Positions 8,944 through 55,299 of a stretch of 64,000 nucleotides of DNA are shown here, one piece after another. The notes beneath the pieces were generated by a model. It ran no database searches and had not been told where the DNA came from. It was given only the letters and a program-made list of their open reading frames with translations. Every line of letters starts with the position of its first letter. The stretch's first letter is position 1. Location: the IMG/VR virus record IMGVR_UViG_3300024513_000016, positions 48,243-112,242 of that record; one strand, given 5' to 3'. The stretch comes from a virus. The translations under genes and the position numbers were made by a program.

Positions 8944-8965
8944 ATACTTTTCCTCATCAATTTAA

Positions 8966-9853: not shown

Positions 9854-9854
9854 A

Positions 9855-35980: not shown

Positions 35981-37042
35981 TCACAAGGCATTGCCTCGTG
36001 GTAATACCTCTTCGGGTAGCACAAAATTTTCATGTGGTTGGTCTACTGGAGCCATCCAGGCACGCAAGCCTTCGTTTAATAATATATTTTTTGTGTAAAA
36101 TGTCTCAAATTCGGGATCTTCAGCAGCACGAATCTCCTGAGAGACAAAATCGTAAGCACGAAGGTTAAGGGCAAGACCAATAATACCGATACTGGAGGTC
36201 CAGAGACCCATAACAGGCACAAACAACATAAAGAAATGAAGCCAACGCTTGTTACTAAAAGCAATACCAAAAATCTGAGACCAGAATCTATTAGCAGTGA
36301 CCATCGAGTAGGTCTCTTCTTCCTGTGTAGGTTCAAATGCTTTGAATGTATTTGATTGATCACTGTCTTCATAAAGTGTATTTTCTACTGTTGCTCCATG
36401 AATTGCACAGAGCAGTGCTCCACCAAGAATACCAGCAACTCCCATCATATGGAAAGGGTTGAGGGTCCAGTTATGGAAACCTTGAAGGAACAAAAGGAAC
36501 CTGAAGATTGCTGCCACCCCAAATGATGGAGCAAAGAACCAACTGGATTGACCCAGTGGGTACATCAGAAACACAGAAACGAATACTGCAATAGGACCAG
36601 AGAATGCGATTGCATTATAAGGACGGATACCCACTAGACGGGAAATCTCAAACTGACGAAGCATGAAACCGATCAGACTAAAGGCCCCGTGGAGTGCCAC
36701 AAAAGTCCAGAGTCCCCCAAGTTGGAACCACCTGACGATATCCCCTTGAGCCTCAGGACCCCAAAGTAGAAGAAGAGAATGACCCATAGAATCTGCAGGC
36801 GTTGACACAGCTGCTGTTAGCACATTACAACCTTCTAAAAAACTTGAAGCAATACCGTGTGTATACCACGATGTCGTAAATGTAATGCCAGTCAACCAAC
36901 CACCAAGAGCAAGATAGGCACAAGGTATAAAAAGTAATCCAGACCATCCAATAAACACAAACCTATCTCGTTTCAACCAATCATCAACTAGGTCAAATAA
37001 ACCTCGTCGTTGATTTTGTAAAGAAATTGTAGATGAAACCAT
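35981..37042 (-). CDS. psbD: Photosystem II D2 protein (AMG), 353 aa, uninterrupted
   Basis: [51 protein letters not shown]; start MVSS after GGAGG. Confidence 0.98.
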
Positions 37043-37070
37043 CAAACCTCCGTAATGATTTGTAATATTT

Positions 37071-37099
37071 ATTTTATCACTTCTTAACAAAAGGGGCAA
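37071..37099 (-). promoter_or_regulatory. Sigma70-type promoter of psbD
   Basis: TTGCCC-17-TAAAAT. Confidence 0.55.
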
Positions 37100-37852: not shown

Positions 37853-38057
37853 ACTCATTTTCTAAAAAGTCGTTCAAGTTTTTCTTTGTTCTTGAAGAGT
37901 TCATAAGATTTGATTTGCTCTCCATAATACTTGCTGATATGCCTACACAAATCTTCTTCTTGTTTAGTAATATCCAGATTATGTTTGTCTTTCAAGATAA
38001 GGATAGTTTCAATATCTTTGAGAGTACTATATGGAATATTCAAAAATTCTTCGTAAG

Positions 38058-38204
38058 TCATTTTCTAATCACAGCAATTACTTTACGGTTTGGATACTTC
38101 TCTACAATTATATCACGAGCACTCTCATAATCAATAGCATCCTTTACGGTTTCATAATACACAGTTTTATCTGCGTCATCCCAAGTTTGAACTTCGTAAG
38201 TCAT
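38058..38204 (-). CDS. 48-aa hypothetical, paralogue of 47375-47521
   Basis: MTYEVQTWDDADKTVYYETVKDA..., 2 aa differences between copies. Confidence 0.75.
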   Translation of the reverse strand: MTYEVQTWDDADKTVYYETVKDAIDYESARDIIVEKYPNRKVIAVIRK

Positions 38205-38435
38205 TTCTTCTCCCAAAAAGGGTTTCATTTCAATCCACTCACACAAATGGAACAAAGACAATCATCAGTTTTAGGAACTCTAAACATAATGTGATTTCCA
38301 GAGCAACAATCTCTATCACCACATTTCATACAATTATCACAAACCCACTCTTTTTGATTACGACATTTGACGAAATCTTCAAGAGTATAGTTTTGAAGAA
38401 GATTAGTCATTTCAGGTGTCTGTGTGTATAAGAGT

Positions 38436-38492
38436 ATTATAGGGCATCCAGAGGCACCCAGAGCATCCCCTGTGCCAGTTCTTCAAGTGTCC
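38436..38492 (-). promoter_or_regulatory. Palindrome-hairpin-(-10) cassette E1
   Basis: GGACACTT-GAAG-AACTGGCAC, 30-nt spacer, TATAAT. Confidence 0.8.
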
Positions 38493-38654
38493 TCAATAAT
38501 TGTCGAAGCAACCATCATCATAAGCCTTATCATAGATTTCTTGGGCAAACTTCACAAAGGCATCAAAGTTTCCAGAATACTCCCAACCATCATTCTCATC
38601 CCAATCTTCTTCAAAGTGTTCTTTTACAAGTTTTAGGATTTGTTCTTCACTCAT
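38493..38654 (-). CDS. 53-aa hypothetical, KFA family, paralogue of 48207-48389
   Basis: KLVKEHFEEDWDENDGWEYSGNFDAFVKFAQEI shared. Confidence 0.75.
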   Translation of the reverse strand: MSEEQILKLVKEHFEEDWDENDGWEYSGNFDAFVKFAQEIYDKAYDDGCFDNY

Positions 38655-38785
38655 AGTGCCTCCAAATCTCCATTAATAATGTCTTTGACAATATTATACT
38701 TGATTTTATCAATTTCTTCATCCACCCACTTCTTTGTATTCTCATTCAAATTTTTGAGTGAGGTTTCCCATTCTTCGTCAGTCAT
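38651..38785 (-). CDS. 44-aa hypothetical, paralogue of 47727-47861
   Basis: MTDEEWETSLK...KWVDEEIDKIKYNI.KDIINGD.EAL. Confidence 0.7.
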   Translation of the reverse strand: MTDEEWETSLKNLNENTKKWVDEEIDKIKYNIVKDIINGDLEAL

Positions 38786-38949
38786 CGTTCAGCAACCACG
38801 ATAAAGTCATTCATAGAAATACTCCTCTTACTTTTAGCAAGAATACCTTGATTTGGAAAATAAGGAACTGCTACAAGATTATAGAATGGTCTCAACTGCT
38901 CATAGAGAGTATAAAGGTGTCCGTCTTTCTTGTATCGGTAGAGTTTCAT
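38782..38949 (-). CDS. 55-aa hypothetical, paralogue of 47858-48025
   Basis: MKLYRYKKDGHLYTLYEQLRPFYNLVAVPYFPNQG... Confidence 0.75.
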   Translation of the reverse strand: MKLYRYKKDGHLYTLYEQLRPFYNLVAVPYFPNQGILAKSKRSISMNDFIVVAER

Positions 38950-39116
38950 AGTGCCTCCAATTCATCAGCAAGTTCAAGAATGTTCTTTTCAGTAATACCG
39001 ATATACTTGAGTTCTTCTACAACTTTACGAAGAGCAGCAGCAACTCCATCTTTTGGAAAGTTGTAAGTATCCTCTGCTTCGTATGCTCTCATAATCTTTT
39101 TTGCTCGTTCAGTCAT
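38946..39116 (-). CDS. 56-aa hypothetical, EAL* family, paralogue of 50024-50227
   Basis: AYEAEDTYNFPKDGV.AALR...ELEAL. Confidence 0.75.
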   Translation of the reverse strand: MTERAKKIMRAYEAEDTYNFPKDGVAAALRKVVEELKYIGITEKNILELADELEAL

Positions 39117-39319
39117 AGTGCCTCCAATTCGTTAGCAAGTTCATAAAGTGCTTTTTTCTCAACTACAGTTACATCATTATTAGGCATAAAGATTGTGTAT
39201 GATAATTCATCCGCAATTACACGAATAGCAGCAGCAAGTGCTTCTTTCATATCATCTGTGGGTTCTACAATCAATTCTGCTTTGAATGTTTCCCAGATTT
39301 GGTATGCGGTATTAGTCAT
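39113..39319 (-). CDS. 68-aa hypothetical, EAL* family, paralogue of 50224-50442
   Basis: FKAELIVEPTDDMKEALA.AIR...EAL. Confidence 0.75.
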   Translation of the reverse strand: MTNTAYQIWETFKAELIVEPTDDMKEALAAAIRVIADELSYTIFMPNNDVTVVEKKALYELANELEAL

Positions 39320-39522
39320 TGTGGTTCTCCAAAAAGTCCAGTGTATCCAGTGGAATAAGATGTTTCGTAGCAACCATCATCATAACCCATTTGATAGATT
39401 TTTTGGGCAAACTTCAAGAGGTCTTCTTCATCACATTCCCAGTAAATGTCGTGTGTTGTTTTACTTATGTGCCTATCAAACCCATAGGTGTTAGCAAGTT
39501 TGATGATTTCTTCATTATTCAT
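39316..39522 (-). CDS. 68-aa hypothetical, KFA family, paralogue of 47518-47730
   Basis: TYGFDRHISKTTHDIYWECDE.D.LKFA shared. Confidence 0.75.
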   Translation of the reverse strand: MNNEEIIKLANTYGFDRHISKTTHDIYWECDEEDLLKFAQKIYQMGYDDGCYETSYSTGYTGLFGEPQ

Positions 39523-39928
39523 CAGGCATCCTCCAAACGAATGTACTTTTCAAATAATCCTCTCATATCATAAAAATACGATTTACCTCTCTCAAGAACA
39601 AAAGCATCATAATCTTCTTGGGTTGGTTCATCTTCCATTTCCATATCCTTCCAACACTCCAAGAAATCTTCAACAGACATATGATATTCCAGAGGAATGT
39701 ATGCTACTTTGGGAGTGATTGTGGTAGTCATTTCAGTTCTGGTGATTTTTCAGGAAGATTTTGATACAATTCATAACATCTTCAAGAGTAGGAGCACTAC
39801 CCTCATAATAGAAATCTTGGTTGATTACATCAGTCACTTTGAGAGTGAAATGAAAATCTCCATCAGAAGAATACTGCTGAATGTTGATGTAGGTTTCGTA
39901 GTCCATCGGTTTGGTTGCTTATGAGAGT

Positions 39929-39985
39929 ATTATAGACCAGTAGGAGACCTTATGGGGTCTCCTTGTGCCAGTTCAAAAGGTGTCC
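39929..39985 (-). promoter_or_regulatory. Palindrome-hairpin-(-10) cassette E2
   Basis: GGACACCT-TTTG-AACTGGCAC, AGGAGACC/GGTCTCCT stem, TATAAT. Confidence 0.8.
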
Positions 39986-40491
39986 TTCTCAAACTTCTCC
40001 TTGAGTTTCAGGTAGAGTTCATATTCTTCTTTGTTTTCTTTATATTTCTTCAGTTCTTCTTCAAGTTCTTTAACCTTTTGAGAAAGTGAAGTATTATCTT
40101 GAGATTCTTCTTTCTTCTCCAGAATGGTTCCAGTTACATCAGCAAACTCAAGATCGGCACCGTTAAGATTGGCACCCTGAAGATTGACACCCCAAAGATA
40201 GGCACTCCGAAGATTGGCATCCCGAAGATTGACACCCTCAAGATAGGCACTCCGAAGATTGGCACCCACAAGATTGGCACCCTCAAGATAGGCACTCCGA
40301 AGATTGGCACCCACAAGATTGGCACCCTCAAGATCGGCACCGTTAAGATTGGCACCCACAAGATTGGCACCCTCAAGATCGGCACCGTTAAGATTGGCAC
40401 CCTGAAGATTGACACCCTCAAGATAGGCACTCCGAAGATTGGCACCCTGAAGATTGGCACTAGGTTTGATTTCGTAACCGTTGACTTTCAT
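39973..40491 (-). CDS. Pentapeptide repeat protein with C-terminal coiled coil
   Basis: A(N/D/Y)Lxx repeats encoded by 15/30-bp tandem DNA repeats; start [10 protein letters not shown]. Confidence 0.9.
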
Positions 40492-40515
40492 TGGAGTTTC
40501 TTTGTGTATGAGACT

Positions 40516-40572
40516 ATTATAAGGCATCACAGGGGCATTTGGAGTGTCCCTGTGCCAGTTCTTCAAGTGTCC
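40516..40572 (-). promoter_or_regulatory. Palindrome-hairpin-(-10) cassette E3
   Basis: GGACACTT-GAAG-AACTGGCAC, 30 nt, TATAAT. Confidence 0.8.
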
Positions 40573-40738
40573 TCAACATACCAATACTCCTCACAACATT
40601 TTACATAATCACTTTGAAGATAATGGAAGAACTCCCCATCATCGTGGGTCATAGTATAACACCATTCCTCATAAATTTCACCGCACCAATACCACCCAGA
40701 TTGGAGTTTATCAAAGACATTCATAGGTCTGTTGTATT

Positions 40739-41347
40739 TCATTCATCTACCCAAACAAATCCCAAACAAGTTTTCATAAAGAACCTCGCAATCATATTTG
40801 GTTTAGTAGGCATATAATACCTGATATATCGTCCATTACCAAAAGTATAATAACCTTCGTGTTTGTTTCCTTGTTTGATTACAAAAGAGGTTTCAATACA
40901 AGAATTAACACTCAATCCAGTTCCATAAGTAAGGTTTAGTTTGAGTGGGAAGTTTCCATTCTCTTTTGCATACTCAAAGTCCTGAATAATCCTATCAAAC
41001 TTTGTGTTGTATAATTTTTCTGAAATATACTTGGATTGATGGAACTTATTTTTGGTGTTCTCAATCAGTTTATCAATCTTCTCATCAAACTCTTGTGTGA
41101 TTTCATCCAGAGTTTTTGGGTTTTCTGGGATTATGAGGAGATATTTTACCTCATCAAATCTTTCATTAGTTTCAGATATTTTCAATCCAATAGCAAAAAA
41201 TAATGCCTCTACATCTTTGATAGAAGTTATTTTAGTAGTATCTACATCATACCACTTACTTCCAATATGTAAAGTTCCTACTGGTGGAATGTAAGTATCT
41301 GATACTGGTTGTCCTATGTTTTGTTCGGTTGGTTTCCAATCAGTCAT
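40739..41347 (-). CDS. Hypothetical protein, member 1 of three-copy family (46851, 51137)
   Basis: Shared SFVIKQG..HEGYYT.GN...YYMP.KPN...FMK.CL.F.WV. Confidence 0.8.
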   Translation of the reverse strand: MTDWKPTEQNIGQPVSDTYIPPVGTLHIGSKWYDVDTTKITSIKDVEALFFAIGLKISETNERFDEVKYLLIIPENPKTLDEITQEFDEKIDKLIENTKNKFHQSKYISEKLYNTKFDRIIQDFEYAKENGNFPLKLNLTYGTGLSVNSCIETSFVIKQGNKHEGYYTFGNGRYIRYYMPTKPNMIARFFMKTCLGFVWVDE

Positions 41348-41350
41348 AAA

Positions 41351-41551
41351 TCACTCCACATAATGATACACAGGTTCTTTGTATTTTCTCAGTAGTCGTA
41401 TTGATTCTTGTGCTTCTTCAAGTGTTTGGAATGTAGCATCTGAGTGAAGAACATATTTTTTTTCAGCAAGATGATAATATTGAATGAAAAAATAAGGTTT
41501 CAAAGTTTTCAAATTGAGGTCTTCTACAATTCGGTAATCATAAACTTTCAT
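41351..41551 (-). CDS. 66-aa hypothetical, paralogue of 51734-51934
   Basis: MKVYDYRIVEDLNLKTLKPYFFIQ... Confidence 0.75.
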   Translation of the reverse strand: MKVYDYRIVEDLNLKTLKPYFFIQYYHLAEKKYVLHSDATFQTLEEAQESIRLLRKYKEPVYHYVE

Positions 41552-41769
41552 TATTTCCGTGCCTCCCAAAGTTTTCCTTCCTCACCACATCCACCATAAG
41601 GTAATCTCATATTATCACAGAATTTACGACCATTACTTTTTCCAGTCACCAGATTTTGACTTAATACTGGATTGTGGCAAGTATCAAATATAGTTCCAGC
41701 ACCAGTAAGGTGTTCAAACCAATCTTTCTTATACCACTTACAATCTTTACATAGACGAAGTTCAGTCAT
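41551..41769 (-). CDS. 72-aa Cys-rich hypothetical, paralogue of 51934-52152
   Basis: LCKDCKWYKKDWFEHLTG...C...FCD..R...GCGEEGK.WEARK. Confidence 0.75.
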   Translation of the reverse strand: MTELRLCKDCKWYKKDWFEHLTGAGTIFDTCHNPVLSQNLVTGKSNGRKFCDNMRLPYGGCGEEGKLWEARK

Positions 41770-41967
41770 CTCAAATACCTGCGTCAGCATCAATAGTGAA
41801 GTTTGGTTTTTCTGTGATGACTTCTACACTCATACTATCCATAATCACAGCAATCAAATCCCTCACATTCTCCCTTGACTTGGGAGTATAATAACCACTC
41901 CAGTTTGATACTGCTAGAGAATGAGTGAGTGTATCAGTAATAACTGCTAATTCGTGTGCTGTCAGTT

Positions 41968-42198
41968 TCATTTCACAAAATCCTCAAGTTTAGGAATTTC
42001 ACCACAATAAGAATTTACTTCTGTTGGACTTCTACCTTTGAAAGTAATACGACACTCCATAGATTTGTCGTAGGTTTTCTGATACAAACTTTGCCTCTGC
42101 ATATCGGTATAGAAATACCCGTATATCATACCAACCATAATGGTAAATCCAAGCATAACACAGATAGCAACAAATACTTCTCTACCATCTACTTTCAT
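41968..42198 (-). CDS. Small membrane protein, paralogue of 49809-50027
   Basis: TM helix, Q.TY.K..ECR...VN..CG..P...DFVK. Confidence 0.7.
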   Translation of the reverse strand: MKVDGREVFVAICVMLGFTIMVGMIYGYFYTDMQRQSLYQKTYDKSMECRITFKGRSPTEVNSYCGEIPKLEDFVK

Positions 42199-42210
42199 TA
42201 ATTTTCTCCA

Positions 42211-42396
42211 TCAAATATCGTAGGGATGTTGGGGGTCTCTGGTCCAGAGTTTAGAATACACCAACCATTTCTCTTGTTTGTTATCCATCTCTGCAGACCA
42301 GTGGATACCATTCTCATCAATAGCATCAAGATAATGAATACCTTTGCGGTCATCAATCACACGGGTGACTGATACAAACTTAATTTTCTCAACCAT
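42211..42396 (-). CDS. 61-aa hypothetical, paralogue of 52149-52334
   Basis: VTRVIDDRKGIHYLDAIDENGIHW.AEMDNKQEKWLVY.KLWTRDPQHPYD. Confidence 0.75.
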   Translation of the reverse strand: MVEKIKFVSVTRVIDDRKGIHYLDAIDENGIHWSAEMDNKQEKWLVYSKLWTRDPQHPYDI

Positions 42397-43660
42397 AATC
42401 AATTGCACATAGGAAAATAAGCAGGACCATGAAGTTCTCCATCTGGTCCCAAATAAGACCAATCACCTTTTTCTACATCCCACCAACAATCTTTGGGATA
42501 ATCATTGTGAGCATCATAGTATTTTCTCACAGCATCCCATTGTTCTGGAGACCAGTTCTTCCAGTTACTCATCTTATCAGCAAGGAAATGATTTTCAATC
42601 TTTCGTTTGATGATAGCATCAGTAGTGGTGTTGTAAATCTCAATCACATCAGAATGATTGAGATGTAGTGTCCAAACTCGTTCAGTCATAGTTCATCATC
42701 CTCCAGTTCATCAGCAAGACGCAGTATAGCATCCTTTACCCAGTTTTGTCCTTTGATGAAATGGTGTTTTTCAATAGAAAGTTCTTTTTCTGGTCTATCC
42801 TCAATATTGAGACCTTCAACTGCTTCACGGAGAGCAGCAGCAACGGCAGAGTTATCATAGTAATATGGTCCTGGACCCAACTTACTATAATACTCATTCA
42901 TTATTTGTTGTACTCTGGATTTTCTACTCATAATGCTTCTACCTCATCAGCAATTTCACGCAACACAGATACGGGGTCTTCAAGTTCTCCACAATCAGTG
43001 CATAACCTATCAGCAACTTCATTGATTACACGAGCAATCAATTTCTGCCTATCTTTACTTTTGGGTCTCATAGAGAGTTCCATTGTGGATTCCAAAATTT
43101 GCAGTGCTCTAGTAGTCATCACGATTTCTCCTGTACCATTCAAGGTCTCTTGGTCGTGCAGTAATTACACTCAAATCAAATTCAAATCTTTTGTATCGGA
43201 TGAAAAATGAAAGCAACGTACTAGAGTTGATACACAAAGAAAATTCTGGGAGGATAGAATCGGAACCAAAATCATCCCACTGAACTGTGATATCCAGTAG
43301 AGCAAACTTTTGGAATCTAAGGACTTGGAAAAACCACTCCTTCCCAAAATCTTCATAGGTTTCATAATCAAAGAGTTTCATACTTTGCCTCCACTTCTTT
43401 TACACGTTCCATAAAACTATCATCACCATGATCACCTGAATACAGATAATCAATGTGCCTCATAATCTCTGCCATCTTACGAAGTTTAGGGAGTTGTGCC
43501 TTCATGTATTCAATACATTCTTCATCAAAGGCAGGATAGTATTCTTCACCATAGTATCCACCATCCTCACGTTTCTGACCATTCTTGAGAATTTCTTCTT
43601 CAAGTTCATCAGCAAACTGTGCTACCTTGTAGTAATCATAATCTCCAAAATGTCCTCCAC

Positions 43661-43819
43661 TCATTTTTTTAACCTCACTCGTGGTTCGATATCGTTGAGT
43701 TCATCATACAGCATCTTTGCAAACCCATAGTGGGGTCTTGTGCCAGTTTCAATACTGGTACTCGTTGCGACCGTCCACATTATATCAAGTTCTTTTTTAT
43801 CTGGTAGAGGTTTCGTCAT
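43661..43819 (-). CDS. 52-aa hypothetical containing embedded cassette E4
   Basis: MTKPLPDKKELDIMWTVATSTSIETGTRPHYGFAKMLYDE...; ATGA overlaps at both ends. Confidence 0.65.
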   Translation of the reverse strand: MTKPLPDKKELDIMWTVATSTSIETGTRPHYGFAKMLYDELNDIEPRVRLKK

Positions 43820-44675
43820 TTTAAATATCTTGGTTTTTCTGAGTCAAATTGGTAAAACTTAGCATCCCTCATATTCAAACACATCAAAACTGTTTGATGC
43901 TCTCTGTCGTAAAGTTCCCAATCTTTTTTAAGTTTGGCATTATGTCTCCTTTGATAAGCACAACACCAAACATTATGGTATATCTTTGCTTTTTCGGAAA
44001 TACTCATCAGTCATCATACTTATCGGGCCAATTATATCCAAGCAAATCAAAATCAATACCAAGTCGGTAAACCCAAAAAAGAACAGAAAGAAGTCTGCCA
44101 CAACCAGATGAAACTTGAAAATAAGGCCAACCAGCATAATCATTCCAATTCACAGAGAATTGGAAGAAAGACCGATTTTTACCTTTTAGAACACAAAAGT
44201 AATATTCGTGTCCAAAATCTTGAATATATTTAAATTTAATAAATTTCATTCTTCTAGTTCTTTTGCTAACTCTAGCATATCATTTTTATCAAGAACAATC
44301 AAGTTGTTTTGGGCAGTGTAAAATTGAACATTTTCAGCAGCAATACGAAGAACGGCAGCAATCAACTTTTCTTCTGTATCAGCACCAGAGTTTCTTGCTG
44401 CCCAAATCTCATCCATTAATTTTTTTGCTCTTTCATTCATTTTTTATTTTGTTTTTCTTCAGTTTGAGGTTTTGGTTGAGTGTAAGGAACTTTACCAGTT
44501 TCATTATACATCAAAATGTCATACTTGAACTTACATTCAAGTGGTTTTTGATTACACATTTTAAGTGTATTATTAGTGATTGTAGTGACAGAAGTTGTAC
44601 CACCAATAGCATATCCAGTGATTGCAATCAAAATCAAAATAGGATAAGCAACATAAGGTTTAATAAACATAATAA

Positions 44676-45050
44676 TCAATCCCAAGAAATGTTTTCAACT
44701 AGAACTCCAGGCATCACATAAGTCCAACCAGAACCAGCAACTTTATAATCCCACTTATATTCATACTTATTATGACTATCCCAAGTCATATATCCTTTCT
44801 CTTTATCAAATCTACCCTTAATAGTTAGTGAAAATTTATTAGAGAAAATGTTACGGGTGCGTAAAGCACCATTTGATTCTCTAGTTTCAATCACTACGCA
44901 GGTATCTTCAAAAAAATAATTTTCTGTTTCCAATCCACAAGGAGTTTCATATCGAAAAGGACGATACCCTTTAGTTTCTTGTGCGAAAACAGGAGAAGTC
45001 AGAAGGAGTGTAGCAAGAAGAAAAATACTTTTCATCATATCACTTAACAA
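44676..45050 (-). CDS. Secreted hypothetical protein, paralogue of 54689-55060
   Basis: Signal peptide SPVFA, YRPFRYETPC...GALRTRNI...WTYVMPG. Confidence 0.75.
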   Translation of the reverse strand: MLSDMMKSIFLLATLLLTSPVFAQETKGYRPFRYETPCGLETENYFFEDTCVVIETRESNGALRTRNIFSNKFSLTIKGRFDKEKGYMTWDSHNKYEYKWDYKVAGSGWTYVMPGVLVENISWD

Positions 45051-45246
45051 TTTGCCAGTTAAAGTCTTGTTTTTTATCTAAGGTAAATTTGTACTTACCA
45101 TTCACAGAAGTCAGAAACATAAGACCATCCTTTTCATCGTCCACATAACAACTATGAAGATGGTCCATTTCTGTATCAAACCGAAGTTTTGCGACACTAG
45201 AAACAGGTTCAACACAGACAAATTTGCGTTTAATAGTTGTGGTCAT
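45040..45246 (-). CDS. Conserved cyanophage hypothetical, paralogue of 55057-55275
   Basis: FV.V.P.SS.AK.RF...M...H...FL.S.N..Y...W.IVK. Confidence 0.7.
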   Translation of the reverse strand: MTTTIKRKFVCVEPVSSVAKLRFDTEMDHLHSCYVDDEKDGLMFLTSVNGKYKFTLDKKQDFNWQIVK

Positions 45247-45430
45247 TTTTCAAGAACAACGATATTATGAGGTGAAAAAATAGTACGTCGTAGATAAGAT
45301 GCTCGAAGAACTTGCTTCAGTGTAGAAGACTCTACAAGTTCAATGTCAGAGGGGGAAAGTTCCCCCCATCGAATAGATGCGATAAAAACTTTAATCGGAT
45401 TCACTGCTAGACCTCCATGCGTATGAGAGC

Positions 45431-45487
45431 ATCATACGACAAAACCACCTCCTTGTGGGAAGTGGTGTGCCAGTTGTTAGAGTGTCA
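45431..45487 (-). promoter_or_regulatory. Palindrome-hairpin-(-10) cassette E5
   Basis: TGACACTC-TAAC-AACTGGCAC, ACCACTTCC/GGAGGTGGT stem, TATGAT. Confidence 0.75.
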
Positions 45488-45883
45488 CTTTTGAATGTCA
45501 AAAGTGGGAACAGGTGCTCCACCATTACTCGGCACCATATAAACAGTACGACTGGTGTTTTCTTCACCTTGAGTAATCCACAGATACTGAAGATAAGCAG
45601 GATTACCCTTTAGACTATCTCCGATAATGGAGTTTGCCTTAGCAACACCAGTAGCACGGATGATTTCAGCATCAGCAAGTTGTTGTGCCGAATCTTTCTT
45701 TGCTTGTGCTTCAAGCACTGCAATCTGTCGGTTACTTTCGGCACGGGCAAGTTCTGCACGACCAGTTTGAGATTGTTCCCAAACTCGGTAAATCGGACCA
45801 ACGATTGCATCAATAATAAACAGAGAGAGGATAAATGCGACTGCAATTGTAATCAAATTACGCATAAAGTTATCTTGTTTCAT
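45485..45883 (-). CDS. Membrane protein resembling SPFH/band-7 C-terminal region
   Basis: TM helix, AE..RA.G.AKAN.IIG.SL...YLQYLW. Confidence 0.6.
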   Translation of the reverse strand: MKQDNFMRNLITIAVAFILSLFIIDAIVGPIYRVWEQSQTGRAELARAESNRQIAVLEAQAKKDSAQQLADAEIIRATGVAKANSIIGDSLKGNPAYLQYLWITQGEENTSRTVYMVPSNGGAPVPTFDIQK

Positions 45884-45902
45884 AATTTACCTCAAATAAA
45901 GT

Positions 45903-46325
45903 TTAGGGAATAATCCAATCATAACTACCAGGAGTTTCTACACTCTCATATCCATCATACTCATCAATACGATAAGGACCAGAAACTTCATCAATACGAA
46001 GTTTAGCACACATTCCGTTTGCTTTGTCTTTCAGTTCTTCTACAACTTGAACCAGAGCAGGATCGTGACGGACAGCATCACCATAATACCAAGATTGTGC
46101 CGAATATGCTTTATTGTAAGCAGTTAGTTCATCTTTACTCATAGTAAGGATTTCTTTTGTGGTTTGTGGTTTCAGTCGTTGTTCAGGTGGAACTAACCAA
46201 ACACTAAATCCCCACTCATTATCTTCAATCCAAACTTGTTGTCCTTTGATTTCCCAGTATCGTTGAACTGCTTCTTTAGAGAGACCGAACCCACCGTAGC
46301 AGGCATTATAAACAACTTTAGTCAT
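45903..46325 (-). CDS. Conserved phage hypothetical protein
   Basis: KVVYNACYGGFGLS...RHDPALVQVVEEL...IDEYDGYESV. Confidence 0.75.
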   Translation of the reverse strand: MTKVVYNACYGGFGLSKEAVQRYWEIKGQQVWIEDNEWGFSVWLVPPEQRLKPQTTKEILTMSKDELTAYNKAYSAQSWYYGDAVRHDPALVQVVEELKDKANGMCAKLRIDEVSGPYRIDEYDGYESVETPGSYDWIIP

Positions 46326-46350
46326 TTCAGGTGTCTGTGTGTATGAGAGT

Positions 46351-46407
46351 ATTATAAGGCATCCAGAGGCACTCAGAGCATCCCCTGTGCCAGTTCTTCA
46401 AGTGTCT
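46351..46407 (-). promoter_or_regulatory. Palindrome-hairpin-(-10) cassette E6, near-identical to E1 including leader
   Basis: About 85 nt shared with 38407-38491 with few mismatches. Confidence 0.8.
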
Positions 46408-46850
46408 TTACACCGATGTAATGGAATACGAAGAAACTGAAAGAACCTTCCAATATATCCTATCTGTGCTCCACATTTAGGGCAACAATACGATGGGTAG
46501 GTCATTTCAATCCAATCAGTTTAGCAAAATCAGGAGTGATAGTAAGGTTTTGTTCTCTTACAAGATTACGAACTTCCTTACGAAGATTTATCCACTTATT
46601 GTAGTAATCTTGTGATGCTTTTTCTGCTCTGTTTTTAGCATCAAAGTCGCACTGGTGCTCGTAAGTTCTGGTTTCGTAGTATCTCATTTTTCATCCTTTC
46701 GTGGTTCTTTACCTTTACACCAAATCGTATGAAGTTCATCAACACGATTTTCCCAAATCATAGTATCTACAATATAGTCATATGGGGTTTCATAAGTGTC
46801 TTCATACACTTCTCTAATGAAGATAGATTTATTTACTGATTGGGGGTATT

Positions 46851-47378
46851 TCATTTCTCACTCACCCAAATAAAAGATAGGCAATTTTTCATAAACCAAC
46901 GAGTAATAGCATTCGGTTTAGTCGGCATATAATACCTGAAAGACCTACAATTACCGAATGTATAATATCCTTCGTGGTTATTTCCTTGTTTGATTACAAA
47001 ACTGGAAGTAATATTACTACCAGTCGCAGTAAGTTTAGAGTAATCTAATTTTGCTGGAAAACTTCCATTCCTGCGAGCATACTCAATATCCTCAATAATC
47101 TTGGTAATCTTTTTACTAAACTGATACTCTTGACGATATTTGAGTTGTGCGAACTTATACTCTACATCCTCAATCTGTTTATCAATCTTCTCATCAAACT
47201 CTTGTGAGATTTCTTCCAGAGTTTTAGGTTTCTCTGGAATATCAAGATAAGGTTTGATTACATCAAAATACTCATAATCTTCGGTGTAATAAAAAGCACC
47301 AACAAAATAAGGAAGAATAATTTGAGGTGCTCCTTTGAGTTTGTTTGGGTTGAGTTTATATCCTATTCTTTCAGTCAT
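46851..47378 (-). CDS. Hypothetical protein, member 2 of three-copy family
   Basis: IPEKPKTLEEISQEFDEKIDK and conserved C-terminus. Confidence 0.8.
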   Translation of the reverse strand: MTERIGYKLNPNKLKGAPQIILPYFVGAFYYTEDYEYFDVIKPYLDIPEKPKTLEEISQEFDEKIDKQIEDVEYKFAQLKYRQEYQFSKKITKIIEDIEYARRNGSFPAKLDYSKLTATGSNITSSFVIKQGNNHEGYYTFGNCRSFRYYMPTKPNAITRWFMKNCLSFIWVSEK

Positions 47379-50300
47379 TTTCTAATCACAGCAATTACTT
47401 TACGATTTGGATACTTCTCTACAATTATATCACGAGCATTCTCATAATCATTAGCATCCTTTACGGTTTCATAATACACAGTTTTATCTGCGTCATCCCA
47501 AGTTTGAACTTCGTAAGTCATAATCCTCTGCGTGATACTTCTTCATTTAATTCCCAACCAGAATCGTGCCCTACTTTGAAACCTTTAGTATAACCCTCAT
47601 TATAAAGTTCTCGGGCAAACTTCAAGAAGTCATCTTCATCACATTCCCAGTAAATGTCGTGTGTTGTTTTACTTATGTGCCTATCAAACCCATAGGTTTT
47701 AGCAAGTTCACGGATTTGTTCTTCACTCATAATGCCTCCACATCACCATTAATAATGTCTTTAATGATATTATACTTGATTTTATCAATTTCTTCGTCCA
47801 CCCACTTCTTCACACCCTCATTCATACTTTTGAGTGAGGTTTCCCATTCTTCATCAGTCATCGTTCAGAAACCACCTCAAAATCGGTCATAGAAATACTC
47901 CTCTTACTTTTAGCAAGAACTCCTTGATTTGGAAAATAAGGAACTGCTACAAGATTATAGAATGGTCTTAACTGCTCATAGAGAGTATAAAGGTGTCCGT
48001 CTTTCTTGTATCGGTAGAGTTTCATTTTGCCCTCATCGCAGTAATCACAGCATCTCTTGCGGTTTGTCCTTTTGCGTGGTTCATAGGAAATCCAGTATTG
48101 ATAAAATACCAATCACTTTCACCATTCATTTTGAGAGAATGTGCTTGGAACTGATTGAGTAGAAACTCAAGGATTTCTGTGTCTGTTGGTTGTTCAGTCA
48201 TCTTTTTCAACCGTCATAGTAGGACATATCATAACTACCTTCATTATAACCCATTTGAAAGATTTCTTGGGCAAACTTCACAAAGGCATCAAAGTTTCCA
48301 GAATACTCCCAACCATCATTTTCATCCCAATCTTCTTCAAAGTGTTCTTTTACAAGTTTGATGACTTCTTCATCTAAAATCATAGTCATTTTTCTCCTGT
48401 TCTAAAACATTACGAGCACGGTCAGCAATCTGTCTCAAACTAATGCGAGGGTCATTATAAGATGTGGGTGTCCAATTATCACACCAACTATCAAGTTCAA
48501 TAATAACTCGTTCTAATGCTGATTGAGTTTTAGTCATTTTACCACTCCAACTCCACATAAATGCTCCACCCCAAATTATTAGGCAGATTATCTTTCAAGT
48601 ATTCTAACATATAATCCTGGAAATCATAAGCAGTTGGTGAGCACTCTTCAATCAGCACACCATACTCCAAATCCTCTTCGTGAATACTATACTTCACCCA
48701 TACATCCACCACTCGTAGGTCAGCATAATTTACACCACCAAATCGTTCTGTTGAATTCTTATGAAGTTCCAGGGCTTTATTAGCAACCTCTTGAATGAGT
48801 GTGAGGTTCTTATTGATGGTGTCGTTCATTTATCGTGAAACCAATTGTAAGCAGTCATCCACCCAACTCCCCATAAAGTTCCAAACATAAAACTCAAAGA
48901 AGTTTGTGGAGAGAAAAGAGAAAATACCAGAATACCTACCCAAAGTGTAGGAACATAGATTGTTTTTTGAGATTTGATTTTTTGTAGTATGTTAGTCATT
49001 TGCTTTCACTCCACCATAAGTATCAAAATAAGGTTTAGGGTCATTAGGATGAGAGTTATGAACAATCTTTGTGGAATTAGGAGAAACGCAAGGAATAGTA
49101 TTAGGTGTAGTATAAGGAGGAGTATACATTTGATAAGGTGTCCTATTCAAATACTCTTCAAGGATATTACAATCCCAAGCATACTTATCATAATACTCCT
49201 TACCATATTCAATAGCATCTTCCCTGTTTGGAAATGCTACTACAAATTTTTCTTTAAAGTAGAGTGAATAAACTTTCATTTGCAATCTCGGGAAGGGTCA
49301 AAGTCAATATATTCTGTCGTAGTTCTCCTCACATAATCACAAAGTTCTACTTGTGCTACTTCCAGAGATAAGAACTCCCCATCATAATATTCATCCTTGA
49401 ATGGATTACGCCACCAAAACAGAAACTTCACCTGTGGATAATACCTTGTGCGGTCTCCTTTGGTTTTTTTGACGATACGATACTTTTTCATCGGATTCCA
49501 CTATCAAAGAGTTTTTTGAGTTCGTGATAAACAAGTTTCAACTCATTATCAACATCCAAATTTACATCTTTCAAAATCCAGTAGAGTTCTTTTGCTTGTT
49601 GCTCTGTGAGTGTGAGTTTGTAGTTCTTTTGAATTTCAATCATTTTCAATCTCCTCTGCGTTTACATAAGGGCAAGTTCTCCATTCAGACCATTTCATAT
49701 CAGGATTTGGTGGGCACAAATAACCACCCTGACCAACAGAAAACAACATAAAACGATGCTGAATGTCTGGTTTCACTCCCAGTTCATTCTCAACGATACG
49801 AAGTTCAATCATTTCACAAAATCTCCAATCACAGGAACATCTCCACAAATCTCATTCACTCGTCCTACTGTTTGGTCTTTGAGTGCTTGACGACACTCCA
49901 AGTTTTTATTGTATGTTTGTTGGAAGAGTGCTCGTTGTTGTTGAGCATCATAGGTGATGATACTACCAGCAACGATTATACCAAAAAACAAAGAAAAAAT
50001 TGCCCAATCAAATCCATCAAGTTTCATAGTGCCTCCAATTCCTCAATAAGTTTCAAAATGCCCTTTACATCTATAATCATATGATCATCAGGTGCATCCC
50101 AATCAGTATTATCATATTGGAGTTGGTTGATGACTTCACGAAGAGCAGCAACAACTCCATCTTTTGGAAAGTTGTATGTATCCTCTGCTTCGTATGCTTC
50201 CATAATCTTTTTTGCTAGTTCAGTCATAGTGCCTCCACATCATAAGAAAGTTCATAAAGTTTTTGAGCATCAACTACCATATCTTCTACACCTTCATCTT

Positions 50301-51089
50301 TACAACACTGATAGTATTGGTATTGATTAGCAATCTCACGGATAGCAGTAGCAAGTGCTTCTTTCATATCATCGGTGGGTTCTACAATCAATTCTGCTTT
50401 GAATGCTTCCCAAACTTTGTATGCTGCGTCAGTCATAGTCATAATCAGTAGGATAAGAGGAGTTCAGGGATACACTTTCTTGGTGACTTTCCCAACCATT
50501 TTCACTACCCATTTCGTAGATTGCTCGGGCAAAGTTTAAAAGAGCATCTTCTTGTAAAGGTTGCCACACTACATCACCAACATCACCAGAATACAGTTCT
50601 CTCAAATATGATGAAGCAAGTTCAAGGATTTGTTCGTCAGTCATTCTTGCCACCCATCAAAGTATTCAGTAAAAAAGTTGAAACTCAAACCAACCTTACC
50701 AAGTTGAAAATCTACTCCAAATAAAGAATTAGTAAAGAATGAGAGTAGGATGTGTAATCCACCATTACTATGAACTAAAGCACTGGGATTTTCATAATTA
50801 ACCCAGAGTAATGAACGATTGTTGATGATACCAAACTGCCAAGTGCGTGAAGTTTCACCATTATCCCAAACTTTTAGGTTGTACTGATAGGGTTTCATTC
50901 TTCATCCTCACAAGGGAACATAGCATCATACTCTTCATCAGTCAGTGTGAGATACTGGACATCAGCATCTTGATGTTCTTCGGCATACATTAGTTGATAA
51001 TGAGCAAAGGAACTTTCAGAAGTGCTGCCGTATTCTACGACACCATCAACAAGGCAGAGGTAGTTCATCGGTTTGTTGTGTATGAGAGT

Positions 51090-51146
51090 ATTATACGACA
51101 AAAAGGGTCTCTGTGGTGAGACCCTGTGCCAGTTCTTCAACCGTCC
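51090..51146 (-). promoter_or_regulatory. Palindrome-hairpin-(-10) cassette E7
   Basis: GGACGGTT-GAAG-AACTGGCAC, AGGGTCTC/GAGACCCT stem plus T-run, TATAAT. Confidence 0.8.
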
Positions 51147-51733
51147 TTCTCATCAACCCAATAAAAACCCAAACAAGTTTTCATAAAGAACCTCACCAAA
51201 CGATTAGGTTTATCAGGCATATAATACTTCAAATATCTACGGTTTCCATTCGTATAATAACCTTCGTGTTTTTTCCCCTGTTTGATTACAAAAGAACTTT
51301 CCACAGAACTACCACTCACAATAAAATTATTCGCAGACAATCCAGTTCCAATAGTAAAAGTAACTTTTTGTGGAAAACTTCCGTGTTTCTTCGCATACTC
51401 AAAGTCCTGAATAATTCTATCAAACTTTTCGTTATATCTTTTTCCAGCAAAATAGTTAGAACACTCAAACTTTTCTTTTGTTGTCTTTATAAGAGCATCA
51501 AACTTCTCATCAAGTTCTTGTGAGATTTCTTCAATACTCTTGCGTGGTGTTGAGAATGTTAGTTCTGGTGCAACATAAGGAATAGTAAAGTATTCCTTTG
51601 CGACTTCATATATTGGATTATCTTTATCCATAGAAGCAACCAACTCCATAGTATAAAAGACATTCTTCACATCTTTAACTGTTTTGATTGCATCTACATT
51701 AAGTTTATGATTTAGTCTTTCAGTCATTTTCAA
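51137..51733 (-). CDS. Hypothetical protein, member 3 of three-copy family
   Basis: KFDRIIQDFEYAK shared with member 1; conserved C-terminus. Confidence 0.8.
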   Translation of the reverse strand: MKMTERLNHKLNVDAIKTVKDVKNVFYTMELVASMDKDNPIYEVAKEYFTIPYVAPELTFSTPRKSIEEISQELDEKFDALIKTTKEKFECSNYFAGKRYNEKFDRIIQDFEYAKKHGSFPQKVTFTIGTGLSANNFIVSGSSVESSFVIKQGKKHEGYYTNGNRRYLKYYMPDKPNRLVRFFMKTCLGFYWVDEKDG

Positions 51734-52810
51734 TCACTCCACATAATGATATAAAGGTTCATTGTATTTTCTCAATAGTCGTATTGCTTCTTGTGCTTCT
51801 TGAAGTGTTTGGAATGTAGCATCTGAATAAAGGAAATACTTTTGGTCCTTAATATTATAAGATTGAATAAAAAAATAAGGTTTCAAAGTTTTTAAATTGA
51901 GGTCTTCTACAATTCGGTAATCATAAACTTTCATTATTTTCGTGCCTCCCAATACTTACCTTCTTCACCACATCCAGCATAAGATCGTCTCATCATATCA
52001 CAAAAACGACCACCTTTGACTTTTCCAGTCACCAGATTTTCACTCAATACTGGATTGTAGCATAAGTCAAATCGGTCTCCACCACCAGTAAGATGTTCAA
52101 ACCAATCTTTCTTATACCACTTACAATCCTTACAGAGTTTTAGGTCAGTCATAAGTCGTAAGGATGTTGAGGGTCTCGGGTCCACAGTTTAGTATATACT
52201 AACCATTTCTCTTGTTTGTTATCCATTTCAGCAGTCCAGTGGATACCATTCTCATCAATAGCATCAAGGTAATGAATACCTTTGCGGTCATCAATCACAC
52301 GAGTGACAGTTACAAACTTTACTTTTTCAATCATCTTTCAACTTCATATAATCTTTTGCTTGATAAAATATCTCATCACGCCAGTTTCTACCACAAATAT
52401 CAAAACTAAAACCTACCTTACCGATAGAAAAAAGAAATGAGAATAACCTACCATATCCCATAGAGATTTGTAGATAAGGCCACTCAATCCATTTACCATA
52501 TTCACCAAAATCAACTGCAACTTGAAGCAGTGAATATCGTTCAGTAAGAAAGAGTGATAGGTAGAACTCTTTACCATAATCCTCTCTTACACCCCATTTT
52601 GCGACTTGAAAGATTTTCATTGGTTTAGTTCCTCTGCAAGTCGAATCATATCACCTTTATCCAAAACAATTCTACCATCTTGAGCCGTAAAGAACTGCAC
52701 TTTTTCTGCAGCAAGACAAAGAATAGCAGCAACTAACTTTTCTTCAGTATCAGCACCAAAATTATTTCGGTGTTCCCATACTTCATTCATAAATTCTTGT
52801 GCTCGTTCAG

Positions 52811-53368
52811 TCATTTTACTTTACCGTGAATAGGACAATCAGCATTAACCCACTTGCGTTCTTCAGGCATTTCTTCGTTATCCATTACAGGACACTTACA
52901 ACCTTTCTTGACTGCTTCAGGAGAACCAGGAATAATACCATTCCATTCTTGATAGGTCATCGCATCCATTTCTTCCTCAGTGTAGTTAGGATTATCAGGT
53001 TGCTCAAGACGCGAAAGTTTTGCTTTCAGGTCATAAATCTCATCTTCCAACCTGCGGAGTTCTTTAGAATAATCCTCTGCCATCATCAGTTCAAACTCTT
53101 CCGAAATCTTACGCATATCTTCTTCACTACGCATATCATTAAATGCAAGCGAACAAGCACCTTTCATAATACCGATTTCATTATGTCCCATCGTGCGGGC
53201 AACAGTTCCAAAGAAACGGAAGAGTTGAATGGTGTTAATGTCTTCACAAGGAATCTCAAAAGTATAGTGCTCCTCGGGAAGAGTTTCATCGTCATACATC
53301 CCAGATCCACCATAACTAGGAGTCCATTCAGTGTCAAACTGTACTTTGAGTTTTGCAGTGTAGGTCAT
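52811..53368 (-). CDS. Hypothetical protein with coiled coil and Cys-rich C-terminus
   Basis: PGSPEAVKKGCKCPVMDN...DCPIHG; first gene after cassette E8. Confidence 0.7.
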   Translation of the reverse strand: MTYTAKLKVQFDTEWTPSYGGSGMYDDETLPEEHYTFEIPCEDINTIQLFRFFGTVARTMGHNEIGIMKGACSLAFNDMRSEEDMRKISEEFELMMAEDYSKELRRLEDEIYDLKAKLSRLEQPDNPNYTEEEMDAMTYQEWNGIIPGSPEAVKKGCKCPVMDNEEMPEERKWVNADCPIHGKVK

Positions 53369-53390
53369 TGCTTTCGATGTCTATGTACCT

Positions 53391-53448
53391 ACTATAAAAC
53401 CTCCTTGAGGACAAGTCAAGGAGGCAGTGGACAGATTTTAAACTGGTC
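53391..53448 (-). promoter_or_regulatory. Palindrome-hairpin-(-10) cassette E8
   Basis: GACCAGTT-TAAA-ATCTGTCC, CCTCCTTGA/TCAAGGAGG stem, TTGACT-17-TATAGT. Confidence 0.75.
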
Positions 53449-53621
53449 TATGTGGTCAAGAGTTTTCTACATATTTTTCTACAACTCTGCGTATCCTCAT
53501 CACATTCAGTCAGACATTCAAAGTAGGAATTCATAATTTCGTGCTGGTCTATAAACTCATCTAGCGTATTACCTATTTTTTTCCACCCAGCAAGTTGATT
53601 GTAAGAAATTAAATTGTGCAT
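53448..53621 (-). CDS. Small twin CxxxC protein
   Basis: MHNLISYNQLAGW...YFECLTECDEDTQSCRKIC; GGAGG RBS. Confidence 0.7.
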   Translation of the reverse strand: MHNLISYNQLAGWKKIGNTLDEFIDQHEIMNSYFECLTECDEDTQSCRKICRKLLTT

Positions 53622-53729
53622 ATGACCTCCACGCACAAAGAATATCATAATAAAGAGTTTTCAGTTCATTTTTATGACCTTACTATTCTACCACTATCTA
53701 GGAGGTTTATGTGGATTGCTTAATACAAC

Positions 53730-54047
53730 TTAATCACGATTTCTCCAATCACTTTCATTATCACGACTAAAGAAATCAATAATATCATCCGCACCATTAA
53801 ATCCAGTGCGATGATTTGATGGATCTGGATCACCCAAATCCAATGCGTTCATAAAGTCATCTAGACTTCCTTCTTGCATATCTGGATTCGCAGCACGGCG
53901 TCTTGCTTGTCTTAGAAGTGTTGCAGCAGAACGATTTGCTTTTGCTAGTTTTTCACACCAAATCATATCACTTAACTCTACAGATTCGCCTTTTACAATT
54001 CGCTCACAGATTGCTTCAAGGCGAAGACGGTATTGAGTGGAGAGCAT
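53730..54047 (-). CDS. Conserved cyanophage hypothetical protein
   Basis: MLSTQYRLRLE.IC..I...DMIW..KLAK.N...LGDPDPSNH. Confidence 0.75.
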   Translation of the reverse strand: MLSTQYRLRLEAICERIVKGESVELSDMIWCEKLAKANRSAATLLRQARRRAANPDMQEGSLDDFMNALDLGDPDPSNHRTGFNGADDIIDFFSRDNESDWRNRD

Positions 54048-54303
54048 ATGTATTACTCAGATAATGATTATTTATTTCTTGATTCTAACTCTTTCATCAA
54101 CTCCTTTGCAAGTTGATTTGAGCGTCTCCACATCAAATACTTTACAATCGGATTTGCTGGATTATGTAGAATCCACCATTTCGTCTTTTCGTATTCTACT
54201 CTTGCAAGTTGAGTAAGCATATAAAATGCCTTTGCTACAGATTGATCAGTAACAATCAAGTAAGCAATACAAAAGAAAATGACGAAATATATGTATGTAG
54301 AAC

Positions 54304-54477
54304 TCATTGTCTCAGAGTTTTAAGATACTGTAATACTTGTTCACGAACTGCCATAAGTTCATTAAAGCACTTTTGATTGTGAGCACAGTTGCGAAGTTCT
54401 GGATCTGGTTTCAAGACACTTTCTTCGAAAAGAGTGAGTCCGCGATTCCATTTATCAACTTGAGATTCTTCAGTCAT
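54304..54477 (-). CDS. 57-aa hypothetical (not in ORF track)
   Basis: KWNRGLTLFEESVLKPDPELRNCAHNQKCFNELM. Confidence 0.7.
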   Translation of the reverse strand: MTEESQVDKWNRGLTLFEESVLKPDPELRNCAHNQKCFNELMAVREQVLQYLKTLRQ

Positions 54478-54637
54478 TTTTTACAACTTTAATGGGACAG
54501 GAAGGAATAACTTTGCGGATTTCTTGTACTATTTCAGTTCTTTGAACTTCACTTAATCCTACAACTTTAGTAAGACGATGAATCAGATTCAATGCATCAC
54601 TGCAACTAATTATGGTTGATGCAAATAGAACAACCAT
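54470..54637 (-). CDS. 55-aa two-Cys protein, possible paralogue of the aptamer-nested ORF
   Basis: MVVLFASTIISC-x26-EIRK-x4-C; AGGAG RBS. Confidence 0.65.
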   Translation of the reverse strand: MVVLFASTIISCSDALNLIHRLTKVVGLSEVQRTEIVQEIRKVIPSCPIKVVKND

Positions 54638-55299
54638 AGTTTTCTCCTATTCTACTACTATTTAAGGTAGTTTATGATTTTTTAATAATTAATCCCAACT
54701 CACATTTTGCACTAGGAATCCAGGCATTACATAAGTCCAAGCACCAAGTTCCTGAACACCACCAACTTTATATTCCCATTTGTATTCGAATTGATTATGA
54801 CTATCCCAAGTCATATATCCTTGTTCTTTATCAAAGCGTCCTTTGATAGTCAGACTATGCTTGTTGGAATAAATGTTGCGAGTGCGTAGTGCTCCACCTT
54901 TCTCGCGAGTTTCAATCACCACACATACATCGGGATAAGTTTGAATACCTGCTTCCAAAAGACAAGGTGTTTCATATCTAAATGGTCGATAAGTTTTAGT
55001 CTCCTGAGCAAATACAGGAGAAGAAAACAACAGTGCAGCGAGAATAATCAGTTTTTTCATTTCACAATGCTCCAGTGCTCATTACCAGTTTTAGGAACCC
55101 AAGTACAATATTGTCGATTGATGGAAACCAAAAAGAGTTTATCATCAGTTTCTTGTTCTACTTGCATTGCATGAAAAGATTGCATAATGTTCACGAATCG
55201 ATTCTTTGCCTTTGAACTCAGCGGAATCACATTCACAAATTGTTTCTTAATCTTTGAAGTTTTCATAGAGTTCATAATTTTTCAACCTCCACAAAGGTA

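Follow-up and report, generated by a model that had tools for sequence, protein, structure and literature searches.

T4-type phages have been documented to shuffle modules within their hyperplastic regions by way of PeSL (promoter-early stem-loop) elements (Arbiol et al., 2010, PMC2839356; Comeau et al., 2014, PMC4122927). A second described system, the ORFanage of Synechococcus phage S-PM2, is dispensable and poorly syntenic and is related mostly to freshwater metagenome sequences; mispackaging together with illegitimate recombination was proposed for it, PeSLs were considered unlikely, and junction sequences were not analysed in that study (Puxty et al., 2015, PMC4503421). Here we analysed a comparable array of small genes in 64,000 nt of viral DNA (positions 48,243 to 112,242 of IMG/VR record IMGVR_UViG_3300024513_000016), which is called the window in the following and numbered from its first letter, with the focus on a 13 nt sequence, GGAGGCAYTATGA, that recurs six times at its gene junctions. 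A preliminary description of the window had proposed that this 13-mer acts as a standardised plug-in joint, at which microhomology recombination inserts or deletes whole genes without breaking translational coupling. Our verdict is that the 13-mer is an ordinary dual-coded family tail lying within a known kind of shuffling region, and we consider it probable that its recurrence stems from descent and not from a function as a joint.

The window derives from a freshwater cyanomyovirus of the T4-like type and covers its early small-gene region, that is, an ORFanage or hyperplastic region. It carries psbD (35981-37099), which adjoins an HNH/NUMOD-type endonuclease, its closest isolates are the Kyanoviridae Synechococcus phages S-SRM01 and S-PM2, and it is homologous both to the small-gene array of S-SRM01 and to positions 7864-12292 of S-PM2, which correspond to ORFs 27-42 inside the published ORFanage (PMC4503421). 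The array itself comprises about 72 co-directional small ORFs on the minus strand (37855-55275) and includes a collinear duplication. As in the homologous S-PM2 ORFanage, small ORFans are arrayed and synteny is rarely kept. With the PeSL systems it shares a T4-like phage background, small non-essential early genes, relatives that differ by insertion, deletion or replacement at short conserved sequences, and the lack of a dedicated recombinase, and PeSL shuffling is thus the closest known system. The 13-mer, however, is not a PeSL. A PeSL consists of an intergenic early promoter of sigma70-like type joined to a terminator hairpin, whereas the 13-mer lies wholly within coding sequence (tail codons, stop and next ATG), contains neither a promoter nor a hairpin, and is not where breakpoints concentrate; five promoter-plus-hairpin cassettes found elsewhere in the window are better PeSL analogues. 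Nor is the array integron-like: no integrase was found among ten small proteins searched against Pfam and PHROGs, the longest ORF on the array coding strand between 37.8 and 56 kb is an HNH/NUMOD-like endonuclease of 212 aa, and the 13-mer junction lacks the imperfect inverted-repeat structure of an attC-type site.

All six exact copies of GGAGGCAYTATGA, at 38651, 38946, 39113, 47727, 50024 and 50224, were confirmed and lie on the minus strand; 100 dinucleotide shuffles gave zero matches, and the rest of the 112-kb contig holds no additional copy. Read on the minus strand, every copy is xxG GAG GCA YTA TGA and encodes (L/V)-E-A-L-stop, and in all six the stop and the following ORF's ATG share bases as ATGA. 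The description of the same bases as tail codons, GGAGG, stop and next start is therefore correct as anatomy, with the role of GGAGG as a ribosome-binding site being putative. Individually, the copy at 38651-38663 ends gene X1 (…GDLEAL) and overlaps the ATG of a KFA-family gene (MSEEQI…); those at 38946-38958 and 39113-39125 end Y1 (…ADELEAL) and Z1 (…ANELEAL) and overlap the start of the MKLYRY gene and of Y1, respectively; the copy at 47727-47739, a CATT variant, ends X2 (…GDVEAL); and those at 50024-50036 and 50224-50236 end Y2 (…IEELEAL) and Z2 (…SYDVEAL) and overlap the start of the MKLDGF gene and of Y2. When codons were redrawn according to the array's own usage with protein tails and TGA stops held fixed, 0.046 copies were expected compared with the six observed, which indicates that the recurrence is genuine and that conservation of the amino acids does not by itself produce it.

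Translational coupling through overlapping stop and start codons (ATGA), with a Shine-Dalgarno sequence inside the upstream gene, is general bacterial and phage operon biology. The 13-mer is of the same kind, combining an ATGA overlap with a GGAGG placed in the last codons through non-preferred codons, so that only the …LEAL tail is specific to it and coupling is predicted. ATGA overlaps were observed at 34 of the 71 array junctions in the window, where TGA is the stop of 62 of 72 ORFs, and at 880 of 1,869 junctions in related loci; ATGA is the joint of the array as a whole and is not peculiar to the genes with the 13-mer. Likewise, GGAGGCA (Glu-Ala) embeds such a site in other families, for instance as GGAGGCAAAATGA (tail EAK) in five of them. 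The two genes ending in WEARK, for which a related sequence had been reported, do carry GGAGGCAC on the minus strand (41551-41569, and 51934-51952 in the paralogue), each located 10 nt upstream of the next ATG, which is part of a TAATG overlap.

Four of the six genes that end in the 13-mer (Z1, Y1, Y2 and Z2) belong to one family, designated family 0, while X1 and X2 stand apart. Family 0 is represented by eight minus-strand copies in the window, seven of which were linked by blastp and the eighth added in the alignment. Z1 (39113-39319) and Y1 (38946-39116) form a tandem pair spanning 38946-39319, and Z2 (50224-50442) and Y2 (50024-50227), their block-B paralogues, form a second one spanning 50024-50442. 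Two further members lie within 42686-43119, of which 42928-43119 ends in EVEAL, spelled GAAGCATTATGA and lacking GGAGG, and 42686-42931 ends in ELEDDEL; a member at 44246-44440 ends in …KELEE and its paralogue at 52617-52814 in …EELNQ. The tails in the window are therefore ELEAL, DVEAL, EVEAL, ELEDDEL, KELEE and EELNQ, and among 202 members in 78 related loci, 119 end in EAL. An AlphaFold2 model built from a 71-sequence alignment is a confident three-helix bundle (pLDDT 93.3) with helices at residues 3-14, 21-36 and 43-55 of 56. Since the third helix of the model extends almost to the terminus and the terminal Leu is nearly invariant, the EAL tail is a structural part of the protein. Searches of ten small proteins against Pfam and PHROGs returned nothing above threshold, family 0 included, neither Y2 nor X1 had a tblastn match among 50,697 isolate phage records, Foldseek of the confident Y1 model against the PDB gave nothing at E ≤ 0.001, and the corresponding region of S-PM2 and S-SRM01 contains neither the 13-mer nor recognisable family-0 genes.

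The six copies are moreover not independent of each other. Self-comparison of the window revealed a collinear, patchily diverged duplication (block A, about 38.0-45.05 kb; block B, 47.4-55.06 kb; 68-97% identity), and the six genes are three paralogue pairs of this one segmental duplication, namely Z1/Z2, Y1/Y2 and X1/X2. The Z/Y pairs are 81% identical between the blocks (39022-39322 compared with 50133-50439), and Z1 and Y1 are 86% identical across their final 44 nt. The two blocks differ as the preliminary description had noted: in block A, Y1 is directly followed by the MKLYRY gene (GGAGGCACTATGAAACTC), while in block B, Y2 is followed by the MKLDGF gene (GGAGGCACTATGAAACTT), and MKLYRY is joined only 2,002 bp further on, by a gene ending in …MRAK (GAGGGCAAAATGAAACTC). 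The intervening stretch of about ten small ORFs (48022-50027, minus strand) is present in block B only and is bounded by GGAGGCACTATGAAACTT and GAGGGCAAAATGAAACTC; its two ends agree at 12 of 14 positions, including 8 contiguous exact ones (ATGAAACT), although ATGAAACT opens five genes of the array. Two sharp identity islands were seen against related contigs: locus L130 is 98.4% identical over 48235-48554 and about 79% identical in the adjacent genes, and locus L134 is 97.9% identical over 140 nt (47077-47216) in the middle of gene 46851-47378 and about 75% identical over the remainder of that gene. Judged from these alignments, the islands suggest recent patch exchange or gene conversion within genes.

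Codon choice in the tail was counted over 71 unique EAL tails of family 0 from the 78 loci. The tail Glu is GAG in 96% (background, 21-28%) and the Leu/Val codon before it has G in third position in 90% (background, 22-30%), while the Glu two codons upstream is the preferred GAA by 39:6. These choices, xxG-GAG-Gxx, place GGAGG 4 nt before the overlapping ATG, and the bias fits selection for GGAGG as a putative ribosome site. All conserved columns of family 0, however, keep essentially one codon, such as GCA in 98-100% at two N-terminal Ala and CGT in 99% at the central Arg, and the identity of GCA and of the upstream CTT-GCT-GAT-GAA is not special to the tail. A single codon per conserved column throughout the family indicates shared descent, accompanied by fast divergence of the variable segments. 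A constraint on the tail GCA (97%) at the DNA level beyond the ribosome site was also considered and was rejected because other conserved Ala, Arg and Thr columns are equally codon-uniform.

To evaluate the 13-mer as a preferred joint, 77 related viral-contig loci were collected with Y1 as query, and 1,947 ORFs were called and clustered into 403 families. Scanning all viral contigs for the 15-mer yielded mostly chance matches, with family-0 tails accounting for 22 of 114, and loci from that scan were excluded from the statistics. Whole-gene gain, loss and replacement were very common across the 77 contigs, and among gene pairs as close as 95% identity or more, only roughly one comparison in two showed downstream neighbours of the same family. 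If the 13-mer were a specialised recombination joint, at which microhomology recombination between copies preferentially moves whole genes with coupling kept, neighbours should turn over faster there; this was not observed. For pairs at least 95% identical, the downstream neighbour was conserved in a fraction of 0.62 at 13-mer junctions, 0.48 at other ATGA junctions and 0.43 at non-ATGA junctions, and for pairs 85-95% identical, in 0.48, 0.27 and 0.24, respectively. Neighbours at the 13-mer were kept at least as often as at other joints in every identity bin, and the ordering was unchanged at neighbour-identity thresholds of 50% and 70%. The rarefied neighbour diversity of family 0 (6.96 downstream and 7.18 upstream) fell within the 2.5-7.9 range of 43 other families. 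The same joint does precede 12 different downstream families, as a plug-in joint would; these 12 came from 58 unique motif junctions, however, compared with 18 families from 44 non-motif family-0 junctions, and motif junctions lead mostly to another family-0 gene or to the MK(L/F)DGF membrane protein.

The positions of breakpoints pointed in the same direction. Thirty-one recent events, with flanks at least 96% identical, provided 62 scored boundaries. Among the older ones, 43 of 50 lay within 12 nt of a gene boundary, compared with 12.5% expected; of these 43 junction-located breakpoints, five were at the 13-mer, one at a promoter cassette and 37 at other junction sequences, though the loci were centred on a motif-bearing gene. 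Taking all 62 boundaries together, six were at the 13-mer and two at a cassette. The 13-mer is thus not enriched at boundaries over its junction share, and the enrichment that the plug-in proposal predicts in aligned relatives was not found. The youngest events, defined by flanks at least 99.8% identical, had 10 of their 12 boundaries inside genes, with 0-7 nt of microhomology, which suggests that raw deletions fall anywhere and that selection, together with homologous exchange in conserved flanks, accounts for much of the junction precision. A 107 nt deletion with 3 nt of microhomology (L182 3904-4010, compared with locus L192, 1229-2086) has produced an in-frame fusion of a 250-aa protein with the C-terminal half of a family-0 gene, and it indicates that deletions are not confined to gene junctions.

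Some single cases speak for the joint proposal. Loci L140 and L143 differ only by a swap of two genes, bounded on the left by the 13-mer and on the right by a promoter cassette, and the replacement between L140 and L149 also begins at the motif. In the former pair, which represents the most recent swap starting at the motif, the left flank of 4,206 nt contains a single mismatch, located 2 nt upstream of the 13-mer; this indicates that the incoming DNA included the motif and that the crossover occurred further upstream, in the family-0 gene. Moreover, at motif breakpoints identity continued for a mean of only 0.31 nt past ATGA. The 2,002-bp difference between blocks A and B, with its ends matching at 12 of 14 positions, is likewise of the form expected of a joint. 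Weighing these cases against the neighbour and breakpoint statistics, we regard a specialised role of the 13-mer in recombination as very unlikely. What stands of the original proposal is that whole genes are swapped with coupling retained, since gains, losses and replacements exact to the ATGA were found in relatives; this property is not specific to the 13-mer. The preliminary description had itself set out two outcomes that would tell against a joint, namely breakpoints placed irrespective of the motif and a motif explained by common ancestry of one C-terminus, and both are largely what we found: four of the six carriers are family 0 and all lie in one duplicated block, with X1 and X2 forming a second family.

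Several observations weigh against a purely descent-based account. X1 (44 aa; 38651-38785, minus strand) and its paralogue X2 (47727-47861) share the same 15 nt (TTGGAGGCACTATGA) with family 0, yet hhalign detected no homology between the two families (probability 2%), so that the ancestry of a single family does not cover all six copies, and X remains a second carrier of the 13-mer unexplained by family-0 descent. Locus L145 contains one 180 nt family-0 gene more than L144, exactly between two 18 nt tail copies (GAATTGGAGGCAYTATGA), and although this is textbook unequal exchange between tandem paralogues, such a clean one-gene indel also fits a plug-in joint. In the unrelated families 21 and 36, lone members have gained an …EAL tail with the 13-mer, precisely at those sites where the next gene is of family 0, which indicates that the joint can be transplanted onto foreign genes; the alternative tails of family 21, CEVL, CEVVKDT (supplied by a cassette) and CEVVEAL, depend on what follows. 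Such transplants are rare, with 1 among the 146 events that share a downstream gene. The 4 nt spacing from GGAGG to the start is short for the putative ribosome site. Finally, all loci were anchored on one family-0 gene and their sequences are phylogenetically related, so that the statistics are descriptive and not phylogeny-corrected. With regard to X, membership in family 0 and the borrowing of a family-0 tail were both considered, and neither was established. Relatives of X end in …EDLETL or …RETKND, and in locus L140 (4371-4545) an X-family N-terminal half (MTDEEWETALKSMNE…) runs into an unrelated C-terminal half, which indicates that the X family is itself mosaic.

The precision of the exchanges at ATGA brings in a more general possibility, namely that the ATGA overlap of any gene is the mechanistic joint, with the 4-5 nt of microhomology that it provides at half of the junctions (AATGA, ATGAC, ATGAA) guiding gene-precise illegitimate recombination. 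At ATGA junctions with one side conserved and the other replaced (157 events in which the upstream gene is shared and 146 in which the downstream gene is), identity ended at the ATGA to the nucleotide, one-gene indels were found between AATGA repeats (L124/L128) and between ATG repeats (L151/L153), and the concentration of older boundaries near gene edges would also follow. The microhomology excess past ATGA was small, however: the carry-over had a median of 0-1 nt, and its means of 0.96 and 1.39 nt compare with null values of 0.69 and 0.81. In addition, the youngest deletions are intragenic with microhomology of similar length, so the raw process appears not to be targeted to junctions and selection can make the pattern. 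We therefore find this explanation rather doubtful. A leader that travels with the downstream gene was rejected as a general rule, since the median identity shared upstream of ATGA was 1 nt when upstream families differed.

The cassettes offer a further set of candidate substrates. Five copies are present in the window, all on the minus strand (38403-38491, 46318-46406, 40496-40576, 51076-51148 and about 39898-39991), each with an invariant GAACTGGCACAGGG, a variable palindromic hairpin and TATAATACTCTCATACAC; the copy at 38403-38491 reads …GGACACTTGAAGAACTGGCACAGGG, variable hairpin, TATAAT. One pair is 96.6% identical. The TGGCAC-N5-xTGC stretch we take to resemble a sigma-54 −24/−12 box. 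Whichever gene lies upstream takes its final codons and TGA stop (…EDT, …KDT or …KDG) from the 5′ edge of the cassette (…AAGGACACTTGAAGAACTGG…), with the stop lying within a TTGAAG hexamer, as seen at 40563-40576, 46398-46406 and 51137-51148 in the window and in family-21 tails of loci L141, L133, L168 and L148. It is conceivable that such PeSL-like cassettes, along with whole conserved genes, are the real substrates, so that modules move by homologous recombination and the 13-mer is a passenger. Besides the near-identical copies, the right boundary of the L140/L143 swap coincides with a cassette and its left crossover lies inside the family-0 gene, the …KDT tails of family 21 come from the cassette, and PeSL-mediated shuffling has its precedent in T4-type phages (PMC2839356, PMC4122927). 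Only 2 of 62 scored boundaries were at a cassette, however, most exchanged units are single genes with no cassette on either side, and PeSLs were judged unlikely for the S-PM2 ORFanage (PMC4503421). We consider this possibility less likely than not.

In the explanation by descent that we favour, the 13-mer represents the last three codons and the stop (…Glu-Ala-Leu-TGA) of a rapidly expanding three-helix family, and because family-0 genes are chained by ATGA overlaps, the same bases also contain the next start codon and, 4 nt upstream of it, a GGAGG that presumably works as the ribosome-binding site. The six copies would have arisen through Z/Y tandem paralogy, the block duplication and the co-duplication of family X with the same tail. 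Boundary linker homology (the Botstein model) and lambdoid or HK97-type mosaicism provide two general models of exchange, by crossovers at module edges or by random illegitimate joints filtered by selection. Here, in contrast, the exchanged units are single micro-genes linked through codon overlaps, and the two processes both seem to be at work. We infer two causes of turnover. One is homologous recombination within promoter cassettes and conserved genes of the flanks; the other is illegitimate deletion and insertion, the products of which would be filtered by selection for intact, still-coupled ORFs. The 13-mer would contribute only as one of many homologous stretches, chiefly when tandem copies of the family cross over unequally. 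A stronger version, which the L144/L145 indel and the tails of X and of families 21 and 36 bring to mind, is that the 18-27 nt tail of family 0 (…CTTGCTGATGAATTGGAGGCACTATGA) is a portable homologous linker that drives tandem expansion and contraction and occasionally moves with the next gene behind unrelated genes; we consider it unlikely. If it were true, the tail would be selected partly for a role in recombination, and the early genes of these cyanophages would be reshuffled without a recombinase.

Two other components of the array were recorded. A small acidic family with the signature KFAQ(E/K)IY (family 1) has five paralogues in the window (38493-38654, 39316-39522, 47518-47730, 48207-48389 and 50429-50653) and 71 members in related loci, and its N- and C-terminal halves recombine between sub-types, 38493 matching 48207 and 39316 matching 47518. 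A pentapeptide-repeat protein of 197 aa (39973-40566) is encoded with internal 90 nt DNA units repeated in tandem (40147-40460); because a promoter-like cassette encloses the called TTG start, the true start is probably a downstream ATG (MKVNGYEIK…).

Together, these results indicate that family descent and ordinary translational coupling can account for a repeated "joint" as striking as this one, and they set a standard of control for claims of plug-in junctions, in which motif joints are compared with non-motif joints and young events with old ones. Family 0, with more than 200 copies in 78 loci and without an isolate homologue by tblastn or a known fold relative, represents an unstudied, abundant early phage protein. 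At the level of the phage, the comparison resolves to the single nucleotide the rapid, gene-precise turnover of the early small-gene region in freshwater T4-like cyanophages.

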